A stretch of 32,000 nt of DNA from Microbulbifer thermotolerans (GTDB lineage: Bacteria; Pseudomonadota; Gammaproteobacteria; Pseudomonadales; Cellvibrionaceae). Positions 9,912 to 31,492 of the stretch are shown in pieces. Both the position numbers and the translations under genes were made by a program. Under the pieces are notes generated by a model. The model had not been told where the DNA came from. It was given only the letters and a program-made list of their open reading frames with translations, and did no database searches. The number at the start of each line of letters is the position of its first letter. The stretch's first letter is position 1. The stretch is from assembly GCF_900112305.1 (NCBI RefSeq), contig NZ_FOKT01000002.1, positions 497,228 through 529,227 on the forward strand, written 5' to 3'.

Positions 9912-10077
9912 TATATTTAACACATGGTTATAAAAAACCCCAGGATATCGCCCGTTGGCTCACCATTGCTGCAAGAGACGCCACACAAAAAACTGAATAA
10001 TCCTTCACCTATTGTAAATTTTATTAATCATCCCTAGACTCACCGCGATACGATAACAAAACCGTACGAGGTGAATC

Positions 10078-11412: not shown

Positions 11413-11488
11413 CCCCCACCGCGCATTGGCAAAAATCACCGCAGCACTACGACCACGGAGCACCGGAGCCATCCGAAGGAGCACAAAC

Positions 11489-12985
11489 ATGAACACCATC
11501 GGCCACCTGATCAATGGCACTACCACCGCCAATGACTCTCGTCAGCAGGAAGTGATGAATCCCTCCACCAGCGCAGTGATCGCCAAAGTCGCCCTGGCCA
11601 GCCGCGCTACCGTGGAAGACGCCATCGCCGCCGCCGAGGCCGCTTATCCCGCCTGGCGGGACACTCCGCCCATCAAGCGCGCACGCATCCTATTTCGCTT
11701 CAAGGAATTGCTGGAAACCAATGCCGACAAGATTTGCGAACTGATCACCCGCGAGCACGGCAAGGTACTGGGCGACGCCATGGGCGAATTGCAGCGCGGC
11801 ATCGAAAATGTCGAGTACGCCTGCGGCATCCCAGAACTGCTAAAGGGCGAACACAGCAGGAACGTCGGACCCGGCATCGATGCCTGGAGCGAATTCCAGC
11901 CCCTGGGCGTCTGCGCCGGTATCACCCCGTTCAACTTTCCCGCCATGGTGCCCCTGTGGATGTGGCCCATGGCCATCGCCTGCGGCAACACCTTCGTACT
12001 CAAGCCCTCCGAGCGGGCTCCCAGTTCCGCGCTGTTTATTGCCCAGCTGGGCCTTGAAGCGGGCATCCCCGCCGGCGTGCTGAACCTGGTCAACGGCGAC
12101 AAAGAAGCGGTGGATACGCTGCTGACGGACCAGCGGATACAGGCGGTCAGCTTCGTGGGCTCCACGCCGGTTGCCGAGTACGTCTACCGCACAGGTACCG
12201 CCAGCGGCAAGCGGGTCCAGGCGTTCGGCGGTGCCAAGAACCATGCGGTGATCATGCCCGACGCCGACTTGGACAACGCGGCCAATGCACTGATGGGCGC
12301 CGCTTACGGCTCTTGCGGCGAGCGCTGCATGGCCATCTCCGTCGCAGTGGCCGTCGGCGACGCCGTCGCCGATGCATTGATTGGGAAACTGAAAGCCCAC
12401 ATCACCAAACTGAAAGTCGGCGACGGCATGGACAACAACAACGATATGGGACCGCTGATCAGCCGCGCCCATCTGGAAAAAATCCGCAGCTACATCGCCA
12501 AGGGCATTGAGGAAGGCGCGGAATTGGTTGTGGATGGGCGTGATCTGAAGGTTACCGGTTTCGAGGATGGCAATTTTCTAGGCGCCTGCCTGTTCGACAA
12601 AGTCAAAGAAGGCATGACGATTCACCGCGACGAAATCTTCGGCCCGGTGCTCTGCGTGATGCGGGTTCGCACCCTGCAAGAGGCGATGGAGATTATCAAC
12701 GCCCACGAATACGGTAACGGTACCTGCATCTTCACCCGCGACGGAGAGGCCGCGCGTTACTTCTCCGACAATATAAAAGTGGGCATGGTGGGTATCAATG
12801 TACCGCTGCCGGTACCCGTGGCCTACCACAGTTTCGGTGGATGGAAACGCTCACTATTCGGCGATCTGCACGCCTATGGCCCTGACTCCGTGCGTTTCTA
12901 CACCAAGCGCAAAGCGGTGACCCAGCGCTGGCCGGCCAGCGGCCTGCGCGAGGGAGCCCAATTCAACTTTCCCAGTAACGACTAA
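11489..12985 (+). CDS. mmsA: CoA-acylating methylmalonate/malonate-semialdehyde dehydrogenase
   Basis: The ATG at 11489 is preceded by AAGGAG. The product starts MNTIGHLINGT and carries ITPFNFPAM, FVLKPSE and the catalytic-Cys context GSCGERCMAISV. The 91-codon upstream extension in the ORF track overlaps the aminotransferase gene and was rejected. Confidence 0.9.
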   Translation: MNTIGHLINGTTTANDSRQQEVMNPSTSAVIAKVALASRATVEDAIAAAEAAYPAWRDTPPIKRARILFRFKELLETNADKICELITREHGKVLGDAMGELQRGIENVEYACGIPELLKGEHSRNVGPGIDAWSEFQPLGVCAGITPFNFPAMVPLWMWPMAIACGNTFVLKPSERAPSSALFIAQLGLEAGIPAGVLNLVNGDKEAVDTLLTDQRIQAVSFVGSTPVAEYVYRTGTASGKRVQAFGGAKNHAVIMPDADLDNAANALMGAAYGSCGERCMAISVAVAVGDAVADALIGKLKAHITKLKVGDGMDNNNDMGPLISRAHLEKIRSYIAKGIEEGAELVVDGRDLKVTGFEDGNFLGACLFDKVKEGMTIHRDEIFGPVLCVMRVRTLQEAMEIINAHEYGNGTCIFTRDGEAARYFSDNIKVGMVGINVPLPVPVAYHSFGGWKRSLFGDLHAYGPDSVRFYTKRKAVTQRWPASGLREGAQFNFPSND

Positions 12986-19128: not shown

Positions 19129-20931
19129 TTACTGACTCTGTAACCAATTGCGCCAACCGCCATAGTGGGTGATTTCTTCGGCACCCTTGAGGCCAGACGC
19201 CTCGCAGATAAACCCGCTCACCCAACGGCCATCGGCCAATTCCACCTTGCCGATACCCAGGGGGGCCGGGATGGCGGCGACGAAGCTGCCCAGTTCTGCG
19301 GTGGGAATAGACCAGACTTCCACTTCGATACCTCTGCCGCCGCTTTCATCGCGCATAAGTCCCGGTCGCAACGGCGGACCTCCGGCGAGGGCGAACAGCC
19401 GGTAACAAGCCGCGGTTTGGGCGCGGGCCTTCAGAACAGCCCCGCGCTCAGTCAGCTGCCAGTTCAGAGGCAATTCTTGCAAGTGGGCACCGCAAACTAA
19501 CAGATCTGTGCGTTCGCTTCCGCCGCAGTCTGGCGCCGTTGTGGGCGCAGCTTCTGTGCCCAGAGCACCTTGAGGAAGCGGCAATATCTGGCGTATCCGA
19601 TTACCGATGGATAGCAGTCTGCGATCGCTGAAGTGATCCCCCACCAGGGTCACGCCAAACGGCAAACCTCGCGTTGTAAAGGCCGTGGGAATGGCAACCG
19701 CCGCCATATCCAACAAATTCATGAAGTTGGTGTAATAACCCAACTGGGAATTGAAGCGCACCGGCTCGGCCAGCATTTCGTCTACGCGGAAGAGACGTCC
19801 CGCCGTCGGGGTGAGCAGACAGTCCAGCCCTTCCATCTGCTCGAAACAGGCCAGGCGCAGCTCCTGCAAGCGGTATTGGGCTCGGAACAGGTCTGTGGCA
19901 GGTGGCGTCTTGCCCGGCTCAATGATGGCGCGCACCACTGGATGGATCGCTTCGGGATCACTGTTTAACAGGGACTCGCAGGCGATATAGCGTTCGGCCA
20001 CCCAGGGGCCTTCATAGAGCAGCCGCGCCGCCTCATCGAAGGGGGTGAAGTCAACGGTTACCAGTTCGATGCCCGCGCCAGTCAGTGCCGCCAGGGTATC
20101 CGCATAGGCCCGCGCATAGTGGTCAGACCCAAAGAATTTCAGCTGTTCCTGAGGCAAAACGCCGATTCGCAACGGACCGCTTCGCAGGCCGTACTGGCGG
20201 GCGGCGTTATCGAACCCGTTGCGACGACTATAACCGTCGCGGGCATCAAAACCTTCAGCGCAGGCCAAAACCGTATTGGCGTCATCAGTGTCCAAAGTGA
20301 AAATGCTGATGCAATCCAGCGACCGGCAAGCGGGCACCAGCCCCGTGGACGACAAGAGTCCCCGTGTGGGCTTGAGGCCAACCAGATTGTTGAAGCAGGC
20401 GGGGACCCGGCCAGAGCCCGCAGTGTCCGTGCCCAAGCTGAAGCTGGCCAGCCCCAGCGCCACCGCTACAGCAGAGCCGGAGCTGGAACCTCCGGAGATG
20501 TAATCCGAATCAAAGGCGTTGCGGCATGGTCCATAAGGTGACCGGGTGCCGTTCAGCCCGGTGGCAAACTGGTCCAGGTTAGTCTTGCCGACGGGAATGG
20601 CGCCGGCATCGATCAGCTGCTGCACTACCTGTGCCGAGCTTTCCGGTGTGTAGGCAAAAGTTGGGCAGGCCGCGGTGGTGGGTATCCCGGCCAGATCAAT
20701 GTTGTCCTTGATGGCAAAGGGAATACCCCACAGGGGGTGGCTGGCCGGGTCCTTCTGTGCCAGGGCCTCCAGCCAGGGTTGCTGCTCCTCGGCCGTCAGC
20801 AGGTGAATCCAGATATTGTGCGCCTCATATTCAGCTGTACGGCGGCGGATATCCGCCATCAGCTGCGCCGGTGTCAGGCGGCCTTCGGCAAAGGCACGCT
20901 GAAGCGCAGAAATACTCATGTCAATGCTCAT
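19129..20931 (-). CDS. allophanate hydrolase (amidase-signature N-domain + C-terminal domain)
   Basis: 600 aa with the amidase signature GGSSSGSAVAVA and FAIKDNIDLAG. Its start overlaps the carboxylase stop (ATGA, 20928-20931). Confidence 0.9.
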   Translation of the reverse strand: MSIDMSISALQRAFAEGRLTPAQLMADIRRRTAEYEAHNIWIHLLTAEEQQPWLEALAQKDPASHPLWGIPFAIKDNIDLAGIPTTAACPTFAYTPESSAQVVQQLIDAGAIPVGKTNLDQFATGLNGTRSPYGPCRNAFDSDYISGGSSSGSAVAVALGLASFSLGTDTAGSGRVPACFNNLVGLKPTRGLLSSTGLVPACRSLDCISIFTLDTDDANTVLACAEGFDARDGYSRRNGFDNAARQYGLRSGPLRIGVLPQEQLKFFGSDHYARAYADTLAALTGAGIELVTVDFTPFDEAARLLYEGPWVAERYIACESLLNSDPEAIHPVVRAIIEPGKTPPATDLFRAQYRLQELRLACFEQMEGLDCLLTPTAGRLFRVDEMLAEPVRFNSQLGYYTNFMNLLDMAAVAIPTAFTTRGLPFGVTLVGDHFSDRRLLSIGNRIRQILPLPQGALGTEAAPTTAPDCGGSERTDLLVCGAHLQELPLNWQLTERGAVLKARAQTAACYRLFALAGGPPLRPGLMRDESGGRGIEVEVWSIPTAELGSFVAAIPAPLGIGKVELADGRWVSGFICEASGLKGAEEITHYGGWRNWLQSQ

Positions 20932-23900
20932 ACCTTGTCCTCCCCGGTTGTCAGTGTGGCTTCATCCTCCAGCACCACCAGCGCCTGACCGGCGCTGACC
21001 CGCCCGCCTTGGTTGGAGAGCAGCTGGCTGACGACGCCGCTACAGGGGGCGCAGATGGGGATTTCCATTTTCATGGACTCAAGAATCATCAGCAGCTGTC
21101 CGGCTTCCACCGTGTCACCGGCCCGGACTTCCGTCTGCCAGACGCTGCCGGACACAGGGCTGTCCACCAGAGTGGCGTCCTCTGGCCAGCTCTGCTCAAT
21201 GGATTCGGCTTCTGCCTCCTCCACTTCAAAGTTGAACTGGCCGTTGGCATGCCAACGTTCCAGCTCTTCCTGAAAGGCCTCGTTGCGCTGTTCAAGGAAT
21301 GTCTGGATGTCACCGGCGTTGTCCGCAACAAACTGCTCGTATTCCGCCAGGGAGAAATGGCTGTCCTCGATCTTCAACGGGTAGCGACCTTGCGGGAAGT
21401 CGCGCCGAATCTGCTGCAGCTCCTCATGGCTGACTTCGTAAAAACGTATCTGATCGAAAAAACGCAGCAGCCAGGGTTTTTCAAAAGCATCGGTGCGCCG
21501 GTAGCGATTCCACATCTGCAGGGTGCGGCCGACAAACTGGTAGCCACCGGGCCCTTCCATGCCGTACACGCAGAGATAGGAGCCGCCAATCCCCACGGAG
21601 TTCTCCGCGGTCCAGGTGCGCGCCGGGTTGTATTTGGTAGTCACCAGGCGGTGGCGCGGGTCTACCGGTGTGGCCACCGGTGCCCCCAGGTAGACATCCC
21701 CCAGCCCCATCACCATATAGGAAGCGTTGAATACGATCTGTTTGACCTGGTCAATGCTGTCCAGGCCGTTGATGCGACGGATAAACTCCAAATTACTTGG
21801 ACACCAGGGAGCATTCCTGCGCACGCTCTGTTCGTATTTCTCAATAGCCAGCCGGCAGGCCGCGTCATCCCAGGAAAGTGGCAGGTGGACAATACGCGAC
21901 GGCACACTCAGTTGCGCCAGCTGCTGTGACAGCTCGCGCTCGCCTTTCTCTATATGGGCCAGCAGATGTTTATGGCTGAGCTCCTGAGTGTCGAAGTGGA
22001 TCTGCAGGGAACGGATACCCGGGGTCAGCTCGCGCAACCCGGGCAAGGGATGCTGCTGCAGCCACTGCATCAGCGCATGGGCGCGAAAGCGCAGGCGGAT
22101 ATCCAGCGCCTGGGGGCCGTACTCCACCAACAGGAAATGGTCCCCGGCAGCGCGGCAGACGATCTCGTCGCCAAAAGTCTCAGCGTCAAATCGGGCCAGT
22201 ATTGGGGTGTCCGGCTCCACCGGCTGCCAGCTGCACGTCTGTGCCTGCAGTGTTTCGATCGCCCGGTTCTGAGCCGCTTCCAGGGCCACGGCCTGTTCCA
22301 GGCTGACCGGCACAAAGCGCACCTTGTCCCCGGCCCGCAACTGGCCCAGTTTCCACAGGTCCGCCGTGATCACCGTGGCCGGACAGACAAAGCCGCCCAG
22401 GGAAGGACCGTCCGGCCCCAGAATCACCGGCATGTCGCCAGTAAAATCCACGGTGCCGAAGGCGTAGGCGTTGTCGTGGATATTGGAGGGATGCAAACCG
22501 GCTTCTCCCCCATCGCGGCGCGCCCATTGCGGCTTGGGGCCGATCAGACGCACACCGGTGCGGCTGGAGTTGTAGTGGATCTCCCAATCCGTATCGAAGA
22601 AGGTGCGCATATCCTCATCGGTAAAGAAGTCCGGAGCCCCGTGGGGGCCGTAGATCACGCGCAGCTCCCAGTGATGGTCCAGAACAGGCCGCAGCGCCTC
22701 CGCGACCCCCCGCACGGGAACAGAGCCGGGGTCAGCGGCCGCATCGAGATGCAGTACATCACCGGTACGCAGAGCGCGGCCATTGTGGCCGCCGAACTGA
22801 CCGAGGGTGAAGGTGGAGCGGGAGTTCAGGTAACCGGGACACTGAATACCGCCACACACAGCCAGGTAGGCCCGCGCCCCCGCCCGGACTCGCCCCAGCT
22901 GCAGAGTCTGTCCCGCCGCCACCGGAACTACCTGCCAGCCCGGTATTGCCTGTCCGTCCAGGGTGGCATCGATGGTGGCGCCCGTGAGGGCAATCCGGGT
23001 ATCACAGGCAAAGGTCAGCGTGGGTCCCTGCAGGGTGATCTCCAGTCCCGCTGCACTGTCCGGGTTACCCAGCAATCGGTTGGCCAGGCGGAAGGAGCGG
23101 CTGTCGAAAGGACCGGAGGGTGGCACGCCCACATCCCAGTGCCCCTGCCGCCCCGGAAAATCCTGGATGGTGGTCTGAGTGCCCCCCTGAAGCACATCGA
23201 TCCGGGCCGGCTGATAGCGGAAGCTGTTCAGGTAGCGAGTGGTGACCTGGCCCCGGGCCAGGGTATCGTCACGGCTGAGCGCACGCAGGTAGTCCAGGTT
23301 GGTTTCGCTGCCGTACAGTTCGGTGGCATCCAGTGTCTGTTGCAGTTTTTCCAATGCTGCGGGGCGATCGCCGGCGCGGACAATGACCTTGGCCAGCATG
23401 GGGTCAAAGAAAGGAGGAACCTCGATGCCGGATTCGATCCAGTGGTCAATCCGCACACCTTCCCCCTCGGGAAAGGACACATGGCTCAGCAGGCCGGCAC
23501 AGGGCTGGAAATCGCGCCAGGGATCTTCCGCATAGAGGCGCACCTGGATAGCGTGCCCCGTCGGTTTCAGCTGTGCCCGCTGCGCCTCCAGATCCGGTGC
23601 TTCGCCAGCGGCGATACGCAGCATCCATTCCACCAAATCAACGCCGTACACCTCCTCGGTCACCCCGTGCTCCACCTGCAGCCGGGTGTTGACCTCAAGA
23701 AAGTAGAAATCCCCGCTGTCAGCGTCGTAGATGAACTCCACCGTGCCCGCGTTGCGATACTCAACACTGGCCAGCAGCTTCTCTGCGGTACTGTGCAGGC
23801 GGGTGCGCACCGCTTCACTCAGATTGGGCGCTGGGCACTCCTCCACCACCTTTTGGTTGCGGCGCTGGCTGGAGCAGTCCCGCTCACCGATGGCCAGGGC

Positions 23901-24557
23901 TCTGCCGGAGCCGTCGCCCACCACCTGGACTTCGATATGGCGGGCACGGGCAATGAACTTCTCCAAAAAAACACCGTCATCGGCAAAGTTGTTGGCGCCC
24001 AGGCGTTTGACAGAATCAAAGGCCGCATCCAGCTCTGCGACGTCATGGCATAACTGCATACCGATGCCGCCACCACCGGCGGTGCTCTTGAGCATAACCG
24101 GATAACCGATGCGTTGTGTTTCGGCGCGGGCCGCGGCCAGATCGGTCAACAGCTCCGAGCCCGGCAGCAGGGGCACACCGGCGGCCTCCGCCAGGGCACG
24201 GGCCCGGTGCTTCAGACCGAACGCCTGCATCTGCTCAGCGGTGGGGCCGATAAAGGTGATGCCCGCCGCCTCACAGCGTTCCACAAAGGCGGCATTTTCA
24301 CTGAGGAATCCGTAACCGGGGTGTATGGCCTGAGCGCCGCTGTCGGCGGCGATCTCCAGCAGGCGCTCGACATTCAGATAGGTATCAGCCGCAGCGCCTT
24401 CCCCCAGACTGTAGGCTTCATCGGCGTGACGCACATGCAGACTGTCGGCATCGCACTCGGCATAAACTGCCACCGAGGCGATACCCATACGCTGCAGCGT
24501 GCGAATCACGCGGGTTGCAATAGCGCCGCGGTTGGCAATCAGAACCTTGGTAAACAT
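20928..24557 (-). CDS. biotin-dependent urea-carboxylase-family enzyme, predicted guanidine carboxylase
   Basis: Start set at the ATG at 24557 (MFTKVLIANRGAIA, the canonical biotin-carboxylase N-terminus). The central part has KipA/KipI-like carboxyltransferase domains. The C-terminus has the biotinyl motif ESMKMEI. The guanidine assignment rests on the riboswitch context and the DUF1989 gene pair. Confidence 0.9.
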   Translation of the reverse strand: MFTKVLIANRGAIATRVIRTLQRMGIASVAVYAECDADSLHVRHADEAYSLGEGAAADTYLNVERLLEIAADSGAQAIHPGYGFLSENAAFVERCEAAGITFIGPTAEQMQAFGLKHRARALAEAAGVPLLPGSELLTDLAAARAETQRIGYPVMLKSTAGGGGIGMQLCHDVAELDAAFDSVKRLGANNFADDGVFLEKFIARARHIEVQVVGDGSGRALAIGERDCSSQRRNQKVVEECPAPNLSEAVRTRLHSTAEKLLASVEYRNAGTVEFIYDADSGDFYFLEVNTRLQVEHGVTEEVYGVDLVEWMLRIAAGEAPDLEAQRAQLKPTGHAIQVRLYAEDPWRDFQPCAGLLSHVSFPEGEGVRIDHWIESGIEVPPFFDPMLAKVIVRAGDRPAALEKLQQTLDATELYGSETNLDYLRALSRDDTLARGQVTTRYLNSFRYQPARIDVLQGGTQTTIQDFPGRQGHWDVGVPPSGPFDSRSFRLANRLLGNPDSAAGLEITLQGPTLTFACDTRIALTGATIDATLDGQAIPGWQVVPVAAGQTLQLGRVRAGARAYLAVCGGIQCPGYLNSRSTFTLGQFGGHNGRALRTGDVLHLDAAADPGSVPVRGVAEALRPVLDHHWELRVIYGPHGAPDFFTDEDMRTFFDTDWEIHYNSSRTGVRLIGPKPQWARRDGGEAGLHPSNIHDNAYAFGTVDFTGDMPVILGPDGPSLGGFVCPATVITADLWKLGQLRAGDKVRFVPVSLEQAVALEAAQNRAIETLQAQTCSWQPVEPDTPILARFDAETFGDEIVCRAAGDHFLLVEYGPQALDIRLRFRAHALMQWLQQHPLPGLRELTPGIRSLQIHFDTQELSHKHLLAHIEKGERELSQQLAQLSVPSRIVHLPLSWDDAACRLAIEKYEQSVRRNAPWCPSNLEFIRRINGLDSIDQVKQIVFNASYMVMGLGDVYLGAPVATPVDPRHRLVTTKYNPARTWTAENSVGIGGSYLCVYGMEGPGGYQFVGRTLQMWNRYRRTDAFEKPWLLRFFDQIRFYEVSHEELQQIRRDFPQGRYPLKIEDSHFSLAEYEQFVADNAGDIQTFLEQRNEAFQEELERWHANGQFNFEVEEAEAESIEQSWPEDATLVDSPVSGSVWQTEVRAGDTVEAGQLLMILESMKMEIPICAPCSGVVSQLLSNQGGRVSAGQALVVLEDEATLTTGEDKV

Positions 24558-24569
24558 GGTGGTATCCCG

Positions 24570-24614
24570 CACGGGCCGTCCCGTGAACTTCTATACGACA
24601 GCGGTCGTCCGCTG
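24570..24614 (-). promoter_or_regulatory. guanidine-II (mini-ykkC) riboswitch candidate, internal to the operon
   Basis: Minus-strand RNA reads CAGCGG-ACGA-CCGCUG, then a 13-nt linker, then CACGGG-ACGG-CCCGUG, then CGGGAUACCACC-AUG. These are two 6-bp hairpins, each with an ACGR tetraloop closed by GG/CC. The second ends 12 nt before the carboxylase start codon. Confidence 0.75.
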
Positions 24615-24685
24615 AAGGTGTGTATCCGGTGTGGTGTCTGAAGACCGTTGCTGACAGGGAGCAAACGGGGATGGTTGGCAGTGCC

Positions 24686-25330
24686 TTATTCGTTATCCCA
24701 CACCAGCAGTTCAATCGGCGTGGGGTTGTAGCCGTTGCAGGGGTTGTTTAGCTGTGGACAGTTGGAGATCAGTACCACCACATCCATCAGAGCCGTCAGC
24801 TCCACATATTTGCCGGGGGCCGAGATGCCGTCCTCGAAGGTGAGTCCGCCCTCTTCGGTGACCGGAACATTCATGAAGAAATTGATGTTGTGGCCGATGT
24901 CGCGCTTGCTGATGCCATATTCCGGGTGCTCGGCGATGGCCAGCATCCAACTGTCCCTGCACGCGTGCATGCAACGCTTTTCCAGGGCGTAACGCACTGT
25001 GTTGCTTTCGGTGGCGCAGGCGCCGCCCAGGGTATCGTGGCGGCCACAAGTATCAGCCACGATTTCCAGCATCGGGCGGTTTTCGCTGGAGCGCAGTACG
25101 CTGCCGGTGGTCAGGTAGAGGTTGCCCTGCTCGCGGATGGTATCCATGGCACTGTAGCGTTCGGCAGGGTCGGCCGCACTGTAAAAGAGCGTATCCGCCG
25201 CTTGGTTGCCCTCCAGATCCAGGATGCGCAATGTCTGTCCCTCACGGACAATACCGATAAAGTAATCCCCAGCATCCACCTTGGTACGGGAAACCGCCTG
25301 CTCTGCCTGACGTGTACTTTCAGTCAACAT
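24686..25330 (-). CDS. DUF1989 urea-carboxylase-associated protein; probable carboxyguanidine deiminase subunit
   Basis: 214 aa and paralogous to the next gene (shared C...HDT/ET.CG and N.F.NV patterns). The position, a DUF1989 pair just upstream of the carboxylase, is the conserved arrangement. Confidence 0.8.
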
Positions 25331-25340
25331 ATTCGCCTCC

Positions 25341-26057
25341 TTATTTGCCCAGGTGATACAAGGCGTTGTTCTGGAAACCGCGCCGGTTTTCCGGGCGGAA
25401 ATTCAGGCAGTAATCGTCGTCGGACACGGGATCTGCTTCACCCAGATCGATACGGACCGGCCTTTGGGGATAGGTGGGCTCCTGGCACAGAGGGTGCGGG
25501 CAGTTGTGCAGCACCACCAGGGTGTCCATCTCGAAACGCAGGGTCAGATGGCTGCCCGGCTGGCTGTGTCCCTCCACCAGTTGCATACGACCTTCAGCGT
25601 CGGCGGCCACCTTGCTGAACCAGTTGATATTGGCCGCCAGGTCCGCACATCCGAGACCGTACTTAGCCAGCTCGACAAGAAAGGCGTCGTGACCATTCTG
25701 GTGCCAGTTATTGCGGTCGTGCTGATAATCACGCACACCCCAGCGCCCGGTGACCTGATCGGCGCGGATATTGCCGCAGACGGTTTCGTGCCAACCCAGG
25801 CTGTCCTCAACAATGGAGGCAAAAATACGTCCCATATCGGAGTAGAGACAGTTGCCCCGGGTGAGCTTAAAGGTATGTTGGCACTTGAGCGTATCTGGTG
25901 CGTTGTAGCGCTCCAGCAGGTTCTCCGGATTGTAGAACAGCATGCCCACATTGGCGCCGCCCTCGAGATCGGTCAGGCGCATCAGGGTGCCTTTGCGCAT
26001 GCGCAGCGACCAGTGGCCACCCGCCGGAATTTCGGTGGTGTATTCAATGCTTTTCAT
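25341..26057 (-). CDS. DUF1989 urea-carboxylase-associated protein; probable carboxyguanidine deiminase subunit
   Basis: 238 aa. It is the second DUF1989 paralog. Its start overlaps the stop of the ABC ATPase gene (26054-26057). Confidence 0.8.
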
Positions 26058-26839
26058 AATGCCTTTTCTGTTTCTCTTGCAGTGAGCGTGAGATCGCGAT
26101 CAATTTTCTTAAGCTTTCTGCCGTCCATCTGACCCACCGGCAGGTCGTAAGTAATCGTGGCGCCATAGGCATCAGGCGCCTGGGGGTCGAGACGGGTCTT
26201 GTCAAACACCCACAACCGGGTACCTAAATAAAACCCCTCGGTGAGGTCATGGGTAACCATAAACACAGTGAGCTCGTATTCGCGCCAAAGACGCAACACG
26301 AGATCATGCATATCGGCCCGAATACCGGGGTCCAGTGCGCCGAAAGGTTCATCCAGGAGCAGAATACGCGGCTGTCCCAACAATGCCTGAGCAATGGCGA
26401 GACGTTGTCGCATTCCCCCTGAAAGCTCCCCCGGATAAAGCGATTCCGCATTTCCCAAACCGACTTCCGCCAGTATTGCCCGCGCTTCATCCCGCGCCTG
26501 CTGGCGGGCCGCCCCAAACAACAAACCGGTCACGCCGGGGCGCCCGAAACCGCGGGCCGCCATGACGTTTTCCAGCACTGACATGTGAGGAAAAACCGAG
26601 TACTGCTGAAAAACAATGCCTCGATCCGGACCCGGCTCGTCGGGGATCGGTTTTCCGTCTAGCAGAAGTTCACCACTACTGGCGGTCTCTGTCCCCAATA
26701 GCATTTTAAGAAAGGTGCTCTTACCACAGCCGGACGCCCCGACCAGCGTAATAAATTCACCTTCTTCAACCCGCAGATTGAGTCTTTCCAAAACAACCTT
26801 GTCACCGTATTTCTTCCACAGATTGCGCGCCTCTATCAT
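26054..26839 (-). CDS. ABC transporter ATP-binding protein (NitT/TauT family, urea-carboxylase-region type)
   Basis: It has Walker A (GASGCGKST), the ABC signature (LSGGMRQR) and Walker B (ILLLDEPF). It shares 1 nt with the permease stop (TAATG). Confidence 0.9.
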   Translation of the reverse strand: MIEARNLWKKYGDKVVLERLNLRVEEGEFITLVGASGCGKSTFLKMLLGTETASSGELLLDGKPIPDEPGPDRGIVFQQYSVFPHMSVLENVMAARGFGRPGVTGLLFGAARQQARDEARAILAEVGLGNAESLYPGELSGGMRQRLAIAQALLGQPRILLLDEPFGALDPGIRADMHDLVLRLWREYELTVFMVTHDLTEGFYLGTRLWVFDKTRLDPQAPDAYGATITYDLPVGQMDGRKLKKIDRDLTLTARETEKAL

Positions 26840-27657
26840 TACTGCACTCCTTTACTCTGCCAGGGGAAGAGACGGCGACTGACCCAGGCCAGAACCGAAT
26901 CGATCAAAAAGGCCAACACAGTGATCCAGGCCACATAAGGCAATATCACGTCCATGGCCATATAGCGACGGACCAGAAAAATCCGGTAGCCGAGGCCATC
27001 AGTGGAGGCAATGGCTTCCGCCGCAATCAAGAACAACCAGCCGGCGCCCAGCGACAGGCGCACGGCGTCAATCAGTCTCGGCATTAACTGCGGAAGTAAT
27101 ACGCGGAAGATAATTTGGCTGGTATTGGCACCGAGGGTTTGTGCCTTTACCAGCTGTTCACGGGGAATTTCCAGTGTTCTGCGCTGGATATCACGCGCGA
27201 TAAAGGGTGTGATCCCAATGGCGATCAACGCCACTTTGGATACTTCCCCCAAACCGAAGACAATAAACAGCACCGGCAAAAGAGCCAGCGGGGGAATCAG
27301 CGATACCACAGTGAGCAGTGGACTGGCCACCGCAGAAACGCTGGGCAATGCACCGGTCAGTAAACCCAGCACTAAACCGACAAACGCTGCGATCAATACA
27401 CCCAGCCCCAGACGGGTCAGGCTACTGGTGGTATCCCCCCAAAATAAATATTCCCCCGTGCGCTTGCTCGGTTCAAACGCCATACGCTGGATAGCGTCGC
27501 CAATCTGACTGAAGCCCGGCAACAGTTTGTCACTGGGGTTTTCGGCCAGGCGTGCATCCGACGCAACAATGTAAAGAATCACCAGCAATACAAAAGGCAG
27601 CAAACCGAACATCATGCGCGTTGCCGGTGCCGGCGTCAGGTTAATAAATCGTTTCAT
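26839..27657 (-). CDS. ABC transporter permease (NitT/TauT family)
   Basis: 272 aa and polytopic, with a BPD-type permease loop (AQTLGANTSQIIFRVLLPQLMP). Confidence 0.9.
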   Translation of the reverse strand: MKRFINLTPAPATRMMFGLLPFVLLVILYIVASDARLAENPSDKLLPGFSQIGDAIQRMAFEPSKRTGEYLFWGDTTSSLTRLGLGVLIAAFVGLVLGLLTGALPSVSAVASPLLTVVSLIPPLALLPVLFIVFGLGEVSKVALIAIGITPFIARDIQRRTLEIPREQLVKAQTLGANTSQIIFRVLLPQLMPRLIDAVRLSLGAGWLFLIAAEAIASTDGLGYRIFLVRRYMAMDVILPYVAWITVLAFLIDSVLAWVSRRLFPWQSKGVQ

Positions 27658-27664
27658 CTTCAGT

Positions 27665-27695
27665 CCTTAGGGAAGCACAAACTTCCCTCCTAAGG
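27665..27695 (-). promoter_or_regulatory. intercistronic stem-loop overlapping the permease ribosome-binding region
   Basis: CCTTAGGGAAG-CACAAA-CTTCCC(TCC)TAAGG gives 6+5 bp with a 3-nt bulge. In the mRNA, the arm nearest the permease ATG carries AAGGA, 7 nt from the ATG at 27657. Confidence 0.4.
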
Positions 27696-27735
27696 GCTCG
27701 GGGGTACCGGGCTTAATACGCCCGCACGCAGGGCT

Positions 27736-28776
27736 TCAGAGATCACCATCAACGGCCATCTGCAACCAGGCTGGGTTGAAACGCAGCTTGATATTGTTGC
27801 GATCGCCATAGATACCGGCAGGTGTTTCGATACCGATAAAACCGGCATCTGGTGCGCCTTCCCCAAGCAGACCGTGCTCGAAGGAGAACTCGGCCACTTT
27901 TTGCATCGTGGTGCGCAGGTCTGGACTGTTGGTAAATTTCAAGGCCGCTTCAGGGGTGTAGAACATCGCGGTAGTGGCAAGCTGTGCTTCATAGCCTGCC
28001 AAATCAGTACCTGCGGCCTGAGCCATAAAGGTTTTTGCTGCCTTAGCGGTGGCATCCTTCGCCTGCATAATTTCCGTTAATTCGAACCAGGCTCCGGTCA
28101 AAGCTTTACCGAGCTCGGGGCTTTTCTCCAGAACTTCGGTTTTAACCACCAACATATCGAGGATTTCCCCGGGGATTTGGGACGAATCAAATACTTGGTT
28201 TGCGCCCGGCATGGACAAAATCTCACCCAACGGCGGATTCCAGGTCGCCACCGCCGTAACTTCCGGCGTTCCATAGACCGCGACCATATCAGCATCAGAA
28301 GTGTTGACCACCTGAATATCCCGCTCACTCAAGCCGACCGTTTCCAGAGCGCGGGCGAGGAAGTAGTGGGATACACTGAGCTCGACCAGATTCACTTTCT
28401 GGCCTTTAATATCCGCCAATGACGTTTTGTCTTTGAGCACAATGCCATCATTGCCGTTGGAAAAGTCATTGATAATCAAGACGGTGTTATCGACACCACC
28501 TGCTGCGGGAATGGTCAGCGTGTCCATGTTGGTTATGGAACAGGCATCGAATTCGCCGACCGTGTACTGATTGATCGATTCGATATAGTCATTGAACTGC
28601 ACAACTTCGATATCGATGTCGTACTTATCGGCCCATTTCTGCACAATCCCCTGCTCGACACCATATGCCCATGGCATCCAGCCGGCATAGATGGACCAGC
28701 ACACTTTGAAAGTATCGCGGGCGGAAGCTGTCGACGACAGCGTCAATGCAAGTAGAAGAATGGAAAGTCGCTTCAT
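27736..28776 (-). CDS. periplasmic substrate-binding protein of the ABC transporter (urea-carboxylase-region type; predicted guanidine-binding)
   Basis: Start set at the ATG at 28776 (MKRLSILLLALTLSSTASA, a signal peptide), with GAGAGGTG upstream. It shows NMT1/TauA-like periplasmic binding-protein patterning. Confidence 0.85.
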   Translation of the reverse strand: MKRLSILLLALTLSSTASARDTFKVCWSIYAGWMPWAYGVEQGIVQKWADKYDIDIEVVQFNDYIESINQYTVGEFDACSITNMDTLTIPAAGGVDNTVLIINDFSNGNDGIVLKDKTSLADIKGQKVNLVELSVSHYFLARALETVGLSERDIQVVNTSDADMVAVYGTPEVTAVATWNPPLGEILSMPGANQVFDSSQIPGEILDMLVVKTEVLEKSPELGKALTGAWFELTEIMQAKDATAKAAKTFMAQAAGTDLAGYEAQLATTAMFYTPEAALKFTNSPDLRTTMQKVAEFSFEHGLLGEGAPDAGFIGIETPAGIYGDRNNIKLRFNPAWLQMAVDGDL

Positions 28777-28839
28777 GGCGCACCTCTCAGTTGGCTTCGG
28801 TCGGTTGCTCACGGAGTACTCCCGGCATCACGCCTGTAG

Positions 28840-28934
28840 TCCTCCCGGGCTTTTATCCCGCCGTGTAACCTTTCACTGAAAGGTCGAGTGCTCTCGGACC
28901 AGTCACCGTTATAAAACAGCCGGAACCCTAGCGC
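28840..28934 (-). promoter_or_regulatory. guanidine-I riboswitch (ykkC-yxkD motif, subtype 1) aptamer
   Basis: Minus-strand RNA reads GCGCUAGGGUUCCGGCUGUUUUAUAACGGUGACUGGUCCGAGAGCACUCGACCUUUCAGUGAAAGGUUACACGGCGGGAUAAAAGCCCGGGAGGAC. All three hallmark blocks are present in the right order: CUAGGGUUCCG, GGUCCGAGAG and ACACGGCGGGAUAAAAGCCCGGGAG. The aptamer lies about 65 nt upstream of the first gene's ATG. Confidence 0.9.
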
Positions 28935-28989
28935 TCCATTTTGCGAATTGTCTGTCACGTAGTGTCAGGAGTACGGACACAAATAAACA

Positions 28990-29005
28990 ATCAAAATACG
29001 TGCCA
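28990..29005 (-). promoter_or_regulatory. sigma-54-like promoter candidate for the guanidine operon (imperfect -12)
   Basis: The minus strand reads TGGCAC-GTATT-TTGAT. The -24 box is perfect and the spacing is correct, but the -12 element is GA instead of GC. It lies about 55 nt upstream of the riboswitch. I found no convincing sigma-70 -35/-10 pair nearby. Confidence 0.3.
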
Positions 29006-29118
29006 AACATAAAAGTCTGTCTTTGCGCTTCATTTCCATATAAAAGTCCAAACAGAACAATATCCAGCCTTTTTGCGCACCACTTTGAATCAATCTAAAC
29101 CTCTGAACGCCCACTTTT

Positions 29119-29136
29119 GGCGCAACACAATGCGCC
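29119..29136. promoter_or_regulatory. perfect 6-6-6 inverted repeat GGCGCA-ACACAA-TGCGCC (candidate activator/enhancer site)
   Basis: Read directly from the sequence. It lies about 115 bp upstream of the minus-strand sigma-54-like box and about 270 bp upstream of the plus-strand one. Confidence 0.3.
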
Positions 29137-29172
29137 GACATCGCATTACTCCAAAGCACATACATTTTTACC

Positions 29173-29196
29173 CATGGAATAAACCAATATTCCATG
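29173..29196. promoter_or_regulatory. perfect 9-6-9 inverted repeat CATGGAATA-AACCAA-TATTCCATG (candidate operator)
   Basis: Read directly from the sequence. It is the longest perfect palindrome in the divergent control region. Confidence 0.3.
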
Positions 29197-29401
29197 CATG
29201 TAGCCAAGACCCAACCTTTGTTGGTGCTTTCTTCGCTTCACCAGCCTCTATCACAATAAAATTGTTCCACAAAGATGCACCAAATCCCTCTGAAAATACT
29301 CTTAAAACCCTCTCTTTCAGAAGAGCTATCCCATCACTTGCGCTTCCTATACCCGCCAGCATATTCCTGCACACCGGGAAACATACTCTCCAGTGGCCGA
29401 G

Positions 29402-29417
29402 TGGCATAATTAGTGCA
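29402..29417 (+). promoter_or_regulatory. sigma-54 (RpoN) type promoter candidate for the oxygenase unit
   Basis: The sequence is TGGCAT-AATTA-GTGCA, with GG (29403-04) and GC (29415-16) at the canonical GG-N10-GC spacing. It matches 14 of the 16 positions of TGGCAC-N5-TTGCA counting the five N positions, or 9 of the 11 specified bases. It lies about 120 nt upstream of the ATG, which leaves room for the riboswitch leader. Confidence 0.55.
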
Positions 29418-29427
29418 TAAAAATTGA

Positions 29428-29443
29428 GTTACATAGTTACATA
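29428..29443 (+). repeat. tandem direct repeat GTTACATA x2 at the predicted transcription start
   Basis: Two perfect adjacent 8-mers lie 11 nt downstream of the -12 GC. Confidence 0.5.
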
Positions 29444-29458
29444 AAGTATTCCCCCCAA

Positions 29459-29506
29459 CCGGGACGACCCGGCCGGCATCCGCCGGAACCGCTCTGGACG
29501 GCCAGA
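29459..29506 (+). promoter_or_regulatory. guanidine-II (mini-ykkC) riboswitch candidate in the oxygenase leader
   Basis: CCGGG-ACGA-CCCGG (29459-29472), then a 20-nt linker, then TCTGG-ACGG-CCAGA (29493-29506). Both ACGR loops are closed by GG/CC. They are followed by CCUUU..AAAGG pairing potential over the AAGGAG ribosome-binding site (29524-29529) and the ATG at 29538. Confidence 0.75.
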
Positions 29507-29537
29507 AACCTTTTTATTGCACAAAGGAGACTGGAGC

Positions 29538-30563
29538 ATGAGCAAACCCACCCGCACCTTTGACCACATCCCTGTTGTCGATATCAGCGGCCTTTATTCC
29601 GATAAATTGGCAGATCGGCAGCAAGTGGCCAAACAAATCGCTGATGCAGCCACCAACGTGGGCTTCCTGTACATTACGGGCCACAGAATTCCACAGTCGT
29701 TGATCGATGCCCTGCTAATCCGCACCAAGGAATTCTTCGCCCGCCCTCACCGGGAAAAAATGCGCTACTACATCGGCAATTCATCCAACCATAGCGGTTA
29801 TGTCCCCGAAGGCGAAGAGCAGTTTTACGGTGGGAAAATCGATCACAAAGAAGCCTATGACATCAATAATGATCTTGGCCATCTGAGCCAGCAAGGGCCA
29901 ATGATAGGCCCGACCCAATGGCCGGATATGGCTGGTTTTAAAGAGGATGTCAGCGCTTATTACCAGGCTGCGTTAAATTTAGGTCAGTTACTCTTCCGGG
30001 GCTTTGCGCTTGCACTCGACCTGCCGGAAGATACCTTTGACGATAAAGTCAAAAACCCTCCCAGCCAGCTTCGACTGATCCATTACCCTTACAACCCCGA
30101 TGCTCAGGACCGGGAGGGCATCGGTGCTCATACAGATTACGAGTGCTTTACCCTGCTATTACCAACTACCGATGGCTTGGAAGTTCTAAACGATAACGGA
30201 GAATGGATTGATGCGCCCGTAATTCCTGGGAGCTTTGTTGTCAATATCGGCGATATGATGGAAATACTCAGTAATGGCCGTTTTATCGCCACCTCACATA
30301 GAGTCCGCAAAGTAAAAGAAGAGCGCTATTCTTTCCCATTGTTTTGCAGTTGTGACTACGACACGATCATTGAACCTCTCGTCGATCCTGCTCCCGGAAT
30401 TAAGCCTGGGACCTATCAACCCATGTGCTGTGGAGATCATTTACTCGCTCAAACCATGCATACGTTTCACTACTTGAAGGAGCGGGTAGCAAAAGGCGAG
30501 TTGCAATTCCCAGATTCCTCGGCCGATGCATCATCCTTCGGCAAACTGCGGGAGGTTTTATAA
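29538..30563 (+). CDS. 2-oxoglutarate/Fe(II)-dependent oxygenase (isopenicillin-N-synthase / ethylene-forming-enzyme-like family)
   Basis: Start set at the ATG at 29538 (AAGGAG upstream). The N-terminal DIOX_N-like region reads IPVVDISGL...GFLYITGHRI. The facial triad is GIGAHTDYE (H-x-D) plus SHRV, and the 2OG-binding Arg-x-Ser is RYSF. The SGYVPEGEE block resembles EFE's SGYVASGEE. Confidence 0.85.
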   Translation: MSKPTRTFDHIPVVDISGLYSDKLADRQQVAKQIADAATNVGFLYITGHRIPQSLIDALLIRTKEFFARPHREKMRYYIGNSSNHSGYVPEGEEQFYGGKIDHKEAYDINNDLGHLSQQGPMIGPTQWPDMAGFKEDVSAYYQAALNLGQLLFRGFALALDLPEDTFDDKVKNPPSQLRLIHYPYNPDAQDREGIGAHTDYECFTLLLPTTDGLEVLNDNGEWIDAPVIPGSFVVNIGDMMEILSNGRFIATSHRVRKVKEERYSFPLFCSCDYDTIIEPLVDPAPGIKPGTYQPMCCGDHLLAQTMHTFHYLKERVAKGELQFPDSSADASSFGKLREVL

Positions 30564-30565
30564 TC

Positions 30566-31492
30566 ATGCACCTTGCCGAGCTCACTTCTGTAATCAATTC
30601 ACCCACTGCTAACACTGTGCCGCGCTGGATGCGCGGCTGCTTTCAGCGGCGCAGTATCAGTTTTGCCAACGGCCAGACGGATACAGATACCCGCGTATTT
30701 TGGCTGCAGTCTAACCTTCTGACCATTGACCTGCGTTTACCGGTCACCGCACAGCAGGAAAAAGAAGGCGACGATATTCAAAAAAAAGCAGATTACGAAG
30801 GTTGGTATGCGCATGCCGACTGGGATGGAAAACAACTTCAGTGGCGTGGTGGTGCCACTTATCAGTTGCACAATCGCTGGCCGGAACCGGCGATTTTACA
30901 GCGCATCGGCAATTGCATGATGGAATTTGCCCCGAGTGGTATTTATGTCGAGGATTGGCGGTTACTTTCAGATCAACCTGGGCCACTCATTGGACTGGAG
31001 CTGATCAGTGAGACAGACCTCAGCAGCGGCACAACGTCTCCGCGCAAGGGGGCACTGATTATCTGCGGCCGGCATGCCGGACTGGTAATCGACCGCCCCC
31101 ACCCGATCAGCGATAGTGGAGGCCTGTTAAAGCAACGATTGACGAATCTACAGATTGATGAAAGCGAACGGAGCAATCTGTTGGACTTTGAAACTTCAGT
31201 GGCTTTGGGATCGCTGTCTGAAGGGTTCACCGTACAGCACAGCCTGCATAAATACCGCTTGCAACAACCCCTGCTTTCTCTGACCGGGTTTGAGCTCGAT
31301 GCAAAATCGGGTTACCTGCGCCAGCGCACAGAAGACAACGGCAAAGCAGTAGAGCGGCTCTTTCGTATTGATTGTTGCGAAATGGAATTTCCCTTTACCC
31401 CGTGTACACCGTCGTCAGAGGATAGCCTCGAGTGGTTCCAGCGGGAGGCACCGACTCTGACGCGCTATACCCGTGTGCTTTATCAGAATTGA
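30566..31492 (+). CDS. hypothetical protein, no recognisable family (308 aa), translationally coupled to the oxygenase
   Basis: Start set at the ATG at 30566, 2 nt after the oxygenase TAA, with GGGAGG 10 nt upstream. It has no signal peptide or transmembrane segment and no motif I can place. The 47-codon upstream extension in the ORF track overlaps the oxygenase and was rejected. Confidence 0.6.
   Translation: MHLAELTSVINSPTANTVPRWMRGCFQRRSISFANGQTDTDTRVFWLQSNLLTIDLRLPVTAQQEKEGDDIQKKADYEGWYAHADWDGKQLQWRGGATYQLHNRWPEPAILQRIGNCMMEFAPSGIYVEDWRLLSDQPGPLIGLELISETDLSSGTTSPRKGALIICGRHAGLVIDRPHPISDSGGLLKQRLTNLQIDESERSNLLDFETSVALGSLSEGFTVQHSLHKYRLQQPLLSLTGFELDAKSGYLRQRTEDNGKAVERLFRIDCCEMEFPFTPCTPSSEDSLEWFQREAPTLTRYTRVLYQN

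Follow-up and report, generated by a model that had tools for sequence, protein, structure and literature searches.

A predicted methylguanidine demethylase locus with a divergent long-form second enzyme and a leader of its own

Two directly adjacent genes in Microbulbifer thermotolerans, encoding an oxygenase and a protein of 308 aa, lie beside an operon for guanidine uptake and breakdown, and raise the question of which compound they act on and how their expression could be coordinated with nitrogen supply. The pair was analyzed within a window of 32,000 nucleotides, i.e., the whole stretch of DNA under study. The initial annotation considered these genes an undescribed module, a qualification that does not hold: in October 2025, Sinn et al. 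reported the MgdH/MgdL system (Nat Commun 2025; PMC12508155). In Vreelandella boliviensis, MgdH is a methylguanidine hydroxylase and MgdL an N-(hydroxymethyl)guanidine lyase, which together yield guanidine and formaldehyde, and growth on methylguanidine has been shown for this system (PMC12508155). The published demethylase has been described from a few halophiles, Vreelandella and Salinisphaera (PMC12508155), and no later literature on MgdH/MgdL was found beyond the 2025 paper.

This paper describes the locus as the known system equipped with a divergent long-form second enzyme and its own leader. On the basis of sequence comparison, ORF1 and ORF2 are very likely to constitute an MgdH/MgdL-type methylguanidine demethylase that feeds guanidine to the neighboring breakdown operon. 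ORF1, employing Fe(II), 2-oxoglutarate (2OG), and O2, would hydroxylate the methyl group of methylguanidine to give N-(hydroxymethyl)guanidine, succinate, and CO2, as suggested by orthology. [quoted passage not shown] Judged from the gene context, the released guanidine would be converted to ammonium by guanidine carboxylase, carboxyguanidine deiminase, and allophanate hydrolase, and would also turn on the guanidine-I riboswitch of the divergent operon.

Gene layout and distribution of the pair

ORF1 and ORF2 are both located on the plus strand, divergent from the minus-strand guanidine operon, and are coupled through a TAA-TC-ATG junction. The coding and regulatory features of this part of the window are the following.

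29538-30563, plus strand: ORF1, mgdH-like gene of 341 aa (ATG at 29538, TAA at 30561-30563), predicted methylguanidine hydroxylase
30566-31492, plus strand: ORF2, long-form mgdL-like gene of 308 aa (ATG at 30566), predicted N-(hydroxymethyl)guanidine lyase
28840-28942, minus strand: guanidine-I riboswitch, leader of the divergent ABC/cgdAB/gca/atzF operon (Rfam RF00442, 95.9 bits)
19129-28812, minus strand: operon for guanidine uptake and the carboxylase pathway, encoding proteins with 50-78% identity to their counterparts in the V. boliviensis operon
27736-28812, minus strand: SBP gene of the guanidine operon
26839-27657, minus strand: permease gene of the guanidine operon
26054-26839, minus strand: ATPase gene of the guanidine operon
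25341-26057, minus strand: cgdA (DUF1989) of the guanidine operon
24686-25330, minus strand: cgdB (DUF1989) of the guanidine operon
24571-24614, minus strand: internal guanidine-II riboswitch, gca leader (Rfam RF01068, 32.5 bits)
20928-24572, minus strand: gca of the guanidine operon
19129-20931, minus strand: atzF of the guanidine operon

The layout given in the initial annotation, with coupled genes divergent from the carboxylase operon and preceded by a sigma-54 element and a guanidine-II-type leader, was seen in all its parts. The rest of the window contains only housekeeping genes, and neither formaldehyde-detoxification nor creatinine genes were found there, the absence of the former being a point against the demethylase reading.

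Homologues of ORF2 are numerous: 198 were retrieved from a 90%-clustered database, the superfamily comprises 559 representative clusters, and relatives are present in 185 species genomes, so that the earlier designation of this protein as an orphan can be abandoned. Among 80 genome loci, an oxygenase gene is located directly upstream of the ORF2 homologue in 73, a guanidine-type SBP gene directly downstream of the pair in 36, and gca within 10 kb of the pair in 22. Linkage of the orthologues to guanidine genes and riboswitches, the lack of which had been named beforehand as an argument against a guanidine-related function, is thus recurrent, and leaves that proposal standing. Among the relatives are many Pseudomonas, Marinobacter, Haliea, Variovorax, and marine gammaproteobacteria, which makes the long-form variant far more widespread than the published methylguanidine demethylase. 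In view of their presence in 185 species genomes, the use of methylguanidine as a nitrogen source may be common in both soil and sea.

Promoter element and leader upstream of the oxygenase gene

The region that precedes ORF1 contains a candidate promoter followed by a candidate aptamer and expression platform.

29402-29417, plus strand: sigma-54-type -24/-12 promoter element, TGGCATaattaGTGCA, matching 9/11 of the consensus with GG and GC correctly spaced
29456-29506, plus strand: guanidine-II (mini-ykkC)-type aptamer, two ACGR-tetraloop hairpins closed by G-C pairs
29459-29472, plus strand: aptamer hairpin P1, CCGGGACGACCCGG
29493-29506, plus strand: aptamer hairpin P2, UCUGGACGGCCAGA
29500-29534, plus strand: putative expression platform, in whose MFE fold the AAAGG(AG) Shine-Dalgarno region and CUGG are bound by CCUUU and by CCAG, the latter being the 3' strand of P2
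29524-29529, plus strand: Shine-Dalgarno (SD) sequence AAGGAG

With TGGCAC-N5-TTGCW as the consensus, about 35 of the 75 leaders scanned have a sigma-54 element that matches at least 9/11 positions and precedes P1 by about 50-60 nt, against a background of 0.037 such matches per 400 nt. The element at 29402-29417 presumably functions as a promoter, and a scan of the ORF1 leader found no sigma-70 promoter. NtrC-type dyads (GCACC-N5-GGTGC-like) occur in 41/64 leaders, the background being 0.28 per 400 nt, and in Pseudomonas they concentrate at about 110 nt before the promoter. The NtrC-like site in the window is weak (a 9/12 match), and a search of the intergenic region for inverted repeats found none. 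Transcription of ORF1 and ORF2 would be driven by the sigma-54 promoter, with a predicted start around 29428-29432 and probably with NtrC as the activator when nitrogen is limiting. No literature was found on sigma-54/NtrC control of guanidine riboswitch genes.

Scored against Rfam RF01068, the ORF1 leader reaches 26.3 bits (E 0.0022), which is below the gathering score of 32, as are the 23.3 bits of the orthologous Pseudomonas leader at locus L015. Moreover, in all seven loci of which the gca-leader copies pass the gathering threshold, the oxygenase leaders are missed (7/7). The twin hairpins are nevertheless located upstream of the oxygenase gene in 63 of 80 genome loci. The P2 12-mer CUGGACGRCCAG is invariant across the orthologous leaders, and the outer stem pairs covary, with a score that was attained in none of 500 shuffles; the four inner pairs of the stem carry no weight in this respect, because they were demanded by the hairpin scan. 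The P1 pair 4-17 is CG in 31 leaders, UA in 9, UG in 2, and AU in 1, and is unpaired in none. The linker between P1 and P2 is 20 nt here and folds into a small hairpin of its own, and in the orthologous leaders it has a median length of 21 nt and a maximum of 65 nt, while the start codon follows the end of P2 at a median distance of 30 nt.

In 56 of the 61 orthologous leaders that were modeled, most of the SD sequence is engaged in pairs in the ensemble without ligand. Forcing P2 in the thermodynamic model raised the median probability of an unpaired SD from 0.23 to 0.29, a gain so slight that the ON-switch mechanism rests on analogy and not on the model. By analogy with the guanidine-II class, binding of guanidine or methylguanidine to the two ACGR hairpins may free the sequestered SD and allow translation of ORF1, and translation of ORF2 would be released with it through the coupling of both genes. 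The combination of a sigma-54 element with a riboswitch-type leader provides a compact example of two-input control, by nitrogen status and by ligand.

The oxygenase and its long-form partner

ORF1 consists of the DIOX_N and 2OG-FeII_Oxy domains (Pfam, E 5e-28 and 5e-24) and is 53% identical to V. boliviensis MgdH over 333 aa (BLASTP, E 3e-122). In the BLASTP alignment, the Fe(II) facial triad (H198-x-D200 and H254 in ORF1) is identical in MgdH, and the same is true of the 2OG-binding RxS motif (R263-Y-S265). Out of 107 positions conserved in the ORF1 family, three short-type MgdH proteins have the identical residue at 95, with one fixed difference, whereas only 60 are common to 9ovh. The latter, an EFE-annotated chain, is the solved structure closest to ORF1 by sequence (E 1.8e-53), its identity to ORF1 being approximately 40%. 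By these comparisons, ORF1 appears to show no sign of a specificity switch relative to MgdH. Genes of the ORF1 type are currently annotated as 'isopenicillin N synthase family oxygenase'.

The earlier proposal that a 2OG oxygenase would hydroxylate the carbon next to a guanidino nitrogen and supply guanidine to the adjacent pathway matches the published activity of MgdH, and methylguanidine, the first-named candidate, is the demonstrated substrate of this 53%-identical enzyme. The reference MgdH rejects arginine, homoarginine, arginine derivatives, guanidino acids, creatine, taurocyamine, and guanidine itself (PMC12508155), which removes the support for most of the further candidates that the initial annotation had listed; agmatine, which it had also named, lies outside the printed panel.

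ORF2 is currently annotated, like other genes of its type, as 'hypothetical protein', and it gave no sequence match in Pfam, NCBIfam, or the PDB. Pairwise comparison with MgdL yields 25% identity over 124 aa (E 2e-5), and ORF2 is only a remote homologue of MgdL. At the level of families the relationship is recovered with an hhalign probability of 98.1% (E 7.6e-14, 206 columns), and the long-family profile finds short MgdL-like proteins at E-values of 1e-16 to 1e-30 among 1.84 billion sequences. Residues D55 and R57 of ORF2 (motif TIDLRLP) align to the catalytic D49 and R51 of MgdL, and this D55-x-R57 dyad is invariant in 37/37 aligned members of the long-form family. The likewise invariant E120 aligns to the proposed guanidine-binding Glu126 of MgdL, and the invariant residues common to both families include W46, Q48, D55, R57, E120, Y127, E129, and W131. 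In hemiaminal cleavage, the general base would be Asp55 of ORF2 and the general acid Arg57. The initial annotation had proposed for ORF2 the handling of a co-product or the role of an accessory subunit, neither of which is supported: MgdL, the homologue that has been characterized, acts as a lyase on a hemiaminal intermediate of unexpected stability.

Some homologues of ORF2 are much longer (approximately 500 aa). Mis-called starts were considered as the origin of these proteins and rejected: they are real C-terminal fusions, of which the fused domain has no sequence match in Pfam or the PDB. In some genomes, a third domain of about 175 aa is fused or adjacent to the ORF2 homologue.

The differences between the long and short forms bear on the identity of the physiological substrate. 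It is fairly unlikely that the long-form ORF2 family has diverged in function within the MgdL superfamily, acting on another hemiaminal or in formaldehyde capture or transfer, with the leader being a methylguanidine-tuned guanidine-II subclass that is AND-gated with sigma-54/NtrC. Likewise quite improbable is the proposal that the same hydroxylase and hemiaminal lyase steps serve another small N-substituted guanidine, the partner having been adapted to a different hydroxylated intermediate, e.g., one with an acidic group. Such adaptation would fit a separate ORF2 subfamily, in which an invariant Arg113 takes the place of the pocket residue Asp112 of MgdL (hhalign, MAFFT L-INS-i), the register of this alignment being uncertain because the region is flanked by indels. 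Relative to MgdL, ORF2 has an insertion of 7 residues (RWPEP) and a deletion of 7 residues in the vicinity of Arg113. The subfamily also carries an invariant Asp130 and about 65 extra, conserved C-terminal residues, ORF2 exceeding MgdL by about 60 residues in total length, and it is absent from the published alignment of the MgdL family (PMC12508155). Moreover, in an NJ tree of the oxygenases, the clade with long partners is sister to the clade with short MgdL partners, both being far from 9ovh as the outgroup, and this basal split coincides with partner type (long versus short), so that a shift in the specificity of ORF1 may be envisaged. Against such a shift stands an oxygenase with essentially no specificity-determining differences from MgdH, a reference enzyme that refuses guanidino acids, arginine derivatives, creatine, and taurocyamine, and a leader of the guanidine-II type: the one Gd-II riboswitch that was probed bound guanidine and methylguanidine equally and did not accept dimethylguanidine (PMC12508155).

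It is very improbable that ORF2 is a non-catalytic beta-barrel with a ligand-binding, chaperone-like, or regulatory role, and that the hemiaminal decays spontaneously. The AF2 model of ORF2 (pLDDT 92) is mostly beta with short connecting helices. Its structural matches in the PDB are only partial and are to lipocalin-like binding barrels, and one proposed pocket residue of MgdL is not kept, both of which would suit a binding protein. However, the Asp-x-Arg dyad is invariant throughout the aligned family, and mutation of its counterpart D49/R51 abolishes MgdL activity (PMC12508155). The coupled translation of both genes and the strict association of ORF2 homologues with the oxygenase across genomes also argue for an enzymatic partner, as does the N-(hydroxymethyl)guanidine hemiaminal itself, which is unexpectedly stable, with a half-life of >1 h without lyase (PMC12508155).

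Finally, it is hardly credible that ORF1 makes guanidine by hydroxylating arginine or homoarginine in the manner of EFE, NapI, or the plant C23 enzymes, with ORF2 as an unrelated accessory protein, since the related chemistry and the proximity of the EFE-annotated 9ovh are outweighed by the clustering of ORF1 with MgdH (53% versus approximately 40%), the inactivity of MgdH on arginine and homoarginine, the homology of ORF2 to a lyase of which it has kept the catalytic dyad, and the retention of the gene pairing in 73/80 genomes.

Relation to known systems

Methylguanidine demethylation thus stands as the preferred function of the ORF1/ORF2 pair, and the comparison with known systems provides a concrete basis for the re-annotation of ORF1- and ORF2-type genes, the leader of which is missed at Rfam thresholds. 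Moreover, the divergent lyase may serve as a natural experiment on pocket residues, because the Asp/Arg dyad has been kept while another proposed binding residue has changed.

The closest counterpart of ORF1 is MgdH of V. boliviensis (UniProt A0A265DXP8), which has the same domain pair and the same HxD...H and RxS motifs, and of which the gene likewise has an MgdL-type gene directly behind it and guanidine riboswitches and the gca pathway in its neighborhood. In V. boliviensis, however, mgdH is located between gca and atzF inside the operon and has no leader of its own, whereas ORF1 is the first gene of a divergent unit apart from the operon, to which a sigma-54 element and a leader of the guanidine-II type belong. 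ORF2 resembles MgdL (V. boliviensis, UniProt A0A265DXW6) in its position downstream of the oxygenase gene, and its fold, predicted to be beta-rich and barrel-like, may correspond to that of MgdL. The MgdL-type architecture consists of a beta-barrel core and a second sheet in a protein of about 220-250 aa (250 aa for MgdL), whereas ORF2 has 308 aa and, unlike MgdL, a conserved extra C-terminal beta-hairpin and helix. As in the guanidine-II riboswitch (mini-ykkC, RF01068), the ORF1 leader places a pair of ACGR hairpins directly upstream of the ribosome binding site of a guanidine-related gene, but leaders of the ORF1 type differ from RF01068 by their sub-gathering scores, longer linker, and invariant P2 12-mer.

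More distant parallels concern the chemistry. EFE, NapI, and the plant clade-23 homoarginine/arginine hydroxylases belong, like ORF1, to the 2OG oxygenase superfamily, and follow the logic of MgdH, in that the carbon next to a guanidino nitrogen is hydroxylated and guanidine is released. These enzymes nevertheless use amino-acid substrates and have no lyase partner, their hemiaminals decaying spontaneously, and the sequence similarity of ORF1 to EFE-type enzymes is clearly lower than that to MgdH. The authors of the MgdL study drew the analogy to PHM/PAL, in which hydroxylation is likewise followed by the action of a dedicated lyase on a stable N-C(OH) intermediate (PMC12508155); PHM/PAL differs from MgdH/MgdL in having no sequence homology to it, a copper monooxygenase, and another lyase fold.

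Gene pair and genomic setting

ORF1, a gene for a 2OG/Fe(II) oxygenase, and its partner ORF2 are best explained as encoding a methylguanidine demethylase, very probably composed of MgdH and a long form of MgdL, which would supply guanidine to the adjacent guanidine pathway. The elements concerned are as follows.

29538-30563, + strand: ORF1, ATG at 29538, TAA at 30561-30563, 341 aa
30566-31492, + strand: ORF2, ATG at 30566, 308 aa
29524-29529, + strand: Shine-Dalgarno sequence AAGGAG ahead of ORF1
29402-29417: sigma-54-type element TGGCATaattaGTGCA, 9/11 match
28840-28942, opposite strand: guanidine-I riboswitch, 95.9 bits
24571-24614, opposite strand: guanidine-II riboswitch within the divergent operon, 32.5 bits

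The pair and its setting were observed correctly in the initial annotation, including the TAA-TC-ATG junction that places the ORF2 start two bases past the ORF1 stop. Both start codons could be settled on the basis of Microbulbifer thermotolerans database proteins, which are 99% identical to ORF1 across its whole length and 100% identical to ORF2. The ORF1 product contains DIOX_N and 2OG-FeII_Oxy domains, and ORF2 had no match among Pfam, NCBIfam, or PDB sequences. On the opposite strand, the guanidine-I riboswitch is followed by an ABC transporter, two DUF1989 genes (cgdAB), the guanidine-II riboswitch, a 1214-aa guanidine carboxylase (gca), and an allophanate hydrolase (atzF), the proteins of which share 50-78% identity with their counterparts in Vreelandella boliviensis, whose guanidine carboxylase operon has been studied experimentally. 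The remaining genes of the window encode housekeeping functions. The spacer of approximately 480 bp between the divergent units (28960-29440) appeared by eye markedly AT-rich relative to its neighbours, and the ORFs within it are all short and probably spurious (28965-29207, minus strand; 29073-29420, plus strand). No inverted repeats were detected in this spacer, which could accommodate binding sites for an activator or IHF serving the sigma-54 promoter.

Putative promoter and riboswitch leader of the oxygenase gene

Sigma-54-type elements matching at least 9 of 11 positions, and often 10 of 11 (as in TGGCACGCACATTGCT of Pseudomonas), were found about 50-60 nt upstream of P1, the first leader hairpin, in approximately 35 of 75 leaders, against a background of 0.037 per 400 nt. 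NtrC-like dyads were likewise enriched upstream (41/64 leaders, background 0.28 per 400 nt); their position is conserved in Pseudomonas, and the match in the window is weak. In the Pseudomonas locus L015 (8714-8732), and at equivalent sites in other Pseudomonas loci, such dyads (for example GGCTCCATTCTGGTGCA) precede the sigma-54 element by about 110 nt. A second, perfect GCACC-N6-GGTGC dyad between promoter and P1 (L015:8847-8862, with equivalents in other Pseudomonas) could bind a protein or form a hairpin in the leader.

The leader element in the window (29456-29506) scored 26.3 bits with Rfam, below the gathering score of 32. Twin ACGR-loop hairpins (P1 and P2) are also present ahead of the oxygenase gene at 63 further loci, with a median P1-P2 linker of 21 nt (range 10-65) and the start codon a median of 30 nt beyond the end of P2. 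Covariation was seen in the outer stem pairs, which the leader scan did not demand, and none of 500 shuffles reached the observed covariation score; P1 pair 4-17, for instance, was CG in 31, UA in 9, UG in 2, and AU in 1 case, and was never unpaired. Moreover, the P2 12-mer CUGGACGRCCAG was invariant in 49 of 49 distinct sequences. The orthologous Pseudomonas leader (L015:8866-8917) scored 23.3 bits. In seven loci (L003, L007, L015, L017, L041, L052, and L053) the gca-leader guanidine-II copies pass the gathering threshold while none of the oxygenase-gene leaders does, so that this leader is systematically overlooked in standard annotation. Oxygenase-gene leaders with the invariant 12-mer that the Rfam guanidine-II model misses may constitute a subclass.

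In the minimum-energy folds, most leaders show base pairing of the Shine-Dalgarno and start region with the 3' strand of P2 together with the bases that follow it, and the predicted accessibility of the Shine-Dalgarno sequence rose only slightly when P2 was forced. Known guanidine-II switches suggest, by analogy, a translational ON mechanism. The earlier prediction that expression would require both nitrogen limitation and a ligand is reasonable, with comparative support for both parts; a literature search retrieved no paper on such combined control by sigma-54 and a guanidine riboswitch. In Psychromonas arctica (L041), guanidine-II-like twin hairpins (about 8860-8917) come within about 140 nt after a guanidine-I riboswitch (8622-8719), forming a tandem of two guanidine riboswitch classes; downstream of these, the oxygenase and lyase genes are the first of the entire transporter/cgdAB/gca/atzF operon.

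Distribution and gene neighbourhoods

ORF2 relatives were detected in 185 species by the genome scan, and the analysis retained 80 loci. The oxygenase gene lies directly upstream on the same strand in 73 of these, a homologue (at least 50% identity) of the guanidine-operon substrate-binding protein (SBP) directly downstream in 36, and gca within 10 kb in 22. A complete lack of guanidine-gene linkage among orthologues, named initially as grounds for refuting the reading, is therefore not what the loci show. No oxygenase was detectable (tblastn, E<=1e-10) in the fetched loci L028, L029, L062, and L077; in L028 (Oxalobacteraceae bacterium) the ORF2 homologue directly adjoins the gca operon. The gene order is reversed in L059, with the oxygenase downstream.

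The closest match to ORF2 in the scan was 69% identical (L003, a Pseudomonadota MAG). M. thermotolerans itself gave no record, although its NCBI proteins match at 99-100%; possibly the representative genome of the species lacks this pair, the locus then varying between strains, or the pattern scan overlooked it.

In fluorescent pseudomonads the oxygenase, the long-form lyase, and an NMT1-type SBP form a compact three-gene unit (L015, L018, L020, L021, L032-L037, and other Pseudomonas loci; about 8950-12060), preceded by the same sigma-54 element and twin-hairpin leader as ORF1. Its SBP is 54-57% identical to that of the guanidine operon in the window and is considered an orphan, since no permease, ATPase, or gca was found within 10 kb. 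Haliea and Marinobacter loci carry a third gene, about 175 aa in length, between those for the ORF2 homologue and the SBP (L049:10969-11481, L055:2253-2771, L058, L069, L074:10972-11508). Its product had no Pfam or PDB sequence match, and several metagenome proteins, 493-524 aa long, contain it as a C-terminal fusion to the ORF2 homologue (P0047, P0051, P0059, P0118, and P0120 are listed with this gene or fusion). This gene is absent from the window.

Comparison with the MgdH/MgdL system

The initial annotation regarded the module as undescribed, but the V. boliviensis gca operon, recovered here as locus L001, contains a 2OG oxygenase (MgdH) and a hypothetical protein (MgdL) that have been characterized (Sinn et al., Nat Commun 2025; PMC12508155). 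MgdH hydroxylates N,N-dimethylguanidine as well as methylguanidine, for which KM is 0.16 mM and kcat about 20 per second; guanidine, arginine, homoarginine, guanidino acids, taurocyamine, creatine, creatinine, methylarginines, and metformin are not accepted as substrates. The N-(hydroxymethyl)guanidine produced has a half-life of more than one hour and is cleaved to guanidine and formaldehyde by MgdL, in which D49 and R51 are essential; methylguanidine supports growth of the strain (PMC12508155). The kind of chemistry and the pathway link were anticipated correctly, whereas the partner role then proposed does not stand, and of the broad substrate list methylguanidine is retained and arginine, homoarginine, guanidino acids, taurocyamine, and guanidine are not.

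ORF1 shares 53% identity with MgdH across 333 residues (E 3e-122), including H198-x-D200, H254, and R263-x-S265. In a neighbour-joining tree of 73 oxygenases adjoining ORF2 homologues and three MgdH adjoining short MgdL, the two groups were sister clades, both distant from the outgroup 9ovh, an EFE-annotated PDB chain. Among 107 positions at least 95% conserved in the long-partner oxygenases, 95 are identical across all three short-type MgdH and only one shows a fixed difference, compared with 60 common to 9ovh. No sign of a specificity change was seen, and methylguanidine is therefore the most likely substrate of ORF1.

Pairwise, ORF2 and MgdL share 25% identity across 124 residues, and hhalign of a 37-sequence ORF2-family against a 20-sequence MgdL alignment gave a probability of 98.1% (E 7.6e-14, 206 columns). 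Invariant residues common to both in the joint alignment include W46, Q48, D55, R57, E120, Y127, E129, and W131; D55 and R57 (motif IDLRLP) are equivalent to MgdL D49 and R51, and E120 to E126. In contrast, Asp112 of MgdL, proposed to bind guanidine, aligns to an invariant Arg113 in the long family, which also displays an invariant Asp130, a seven-residue RWPEP insertion with a deletion close by, and about 65 additional conserved C-terminal residues. None of the signature strings of the long form occurs within the published MgdL family alignment. Against 1.84 billion representatives, the long-family profile matched 559 clusters at E <= 0.001, of which 58 reached E <= 1e-30; a large share of the matches of 230-290 aa have 25-34% identity to MgdL and the W-x-Q...D-x-R motif. 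The AlphaFold model of ORF2 (pLDDT 92, pTM 0.90), mostly beta with short connecting helices, appears consistent with the published description of MgdL as a barrel with a second sheet; Foldseek against the PDB returned only partial lipocalin-like matches. Based on these alignments, motif, profile matches, and model, ORF2 is a member of the MgdL superfamily with an intact catalytic dyad, belonging to an uncharacterised long subfamily.

In V. boliviensis, the internal guanidine-II riboswitch accepts guanidine and methylguanidine as ligands equally, guanidine being the sole ligand bound by the guanidine-I riboswitch (PMC12508155). What is new relative to that system is modest in extent, yet real: the lyase subfamily, both divergent and widespread; a leader of its own that pairs sigma-54 with a variant guanidine-II aptamer; and the compact three-gene form of Pseudomonas.
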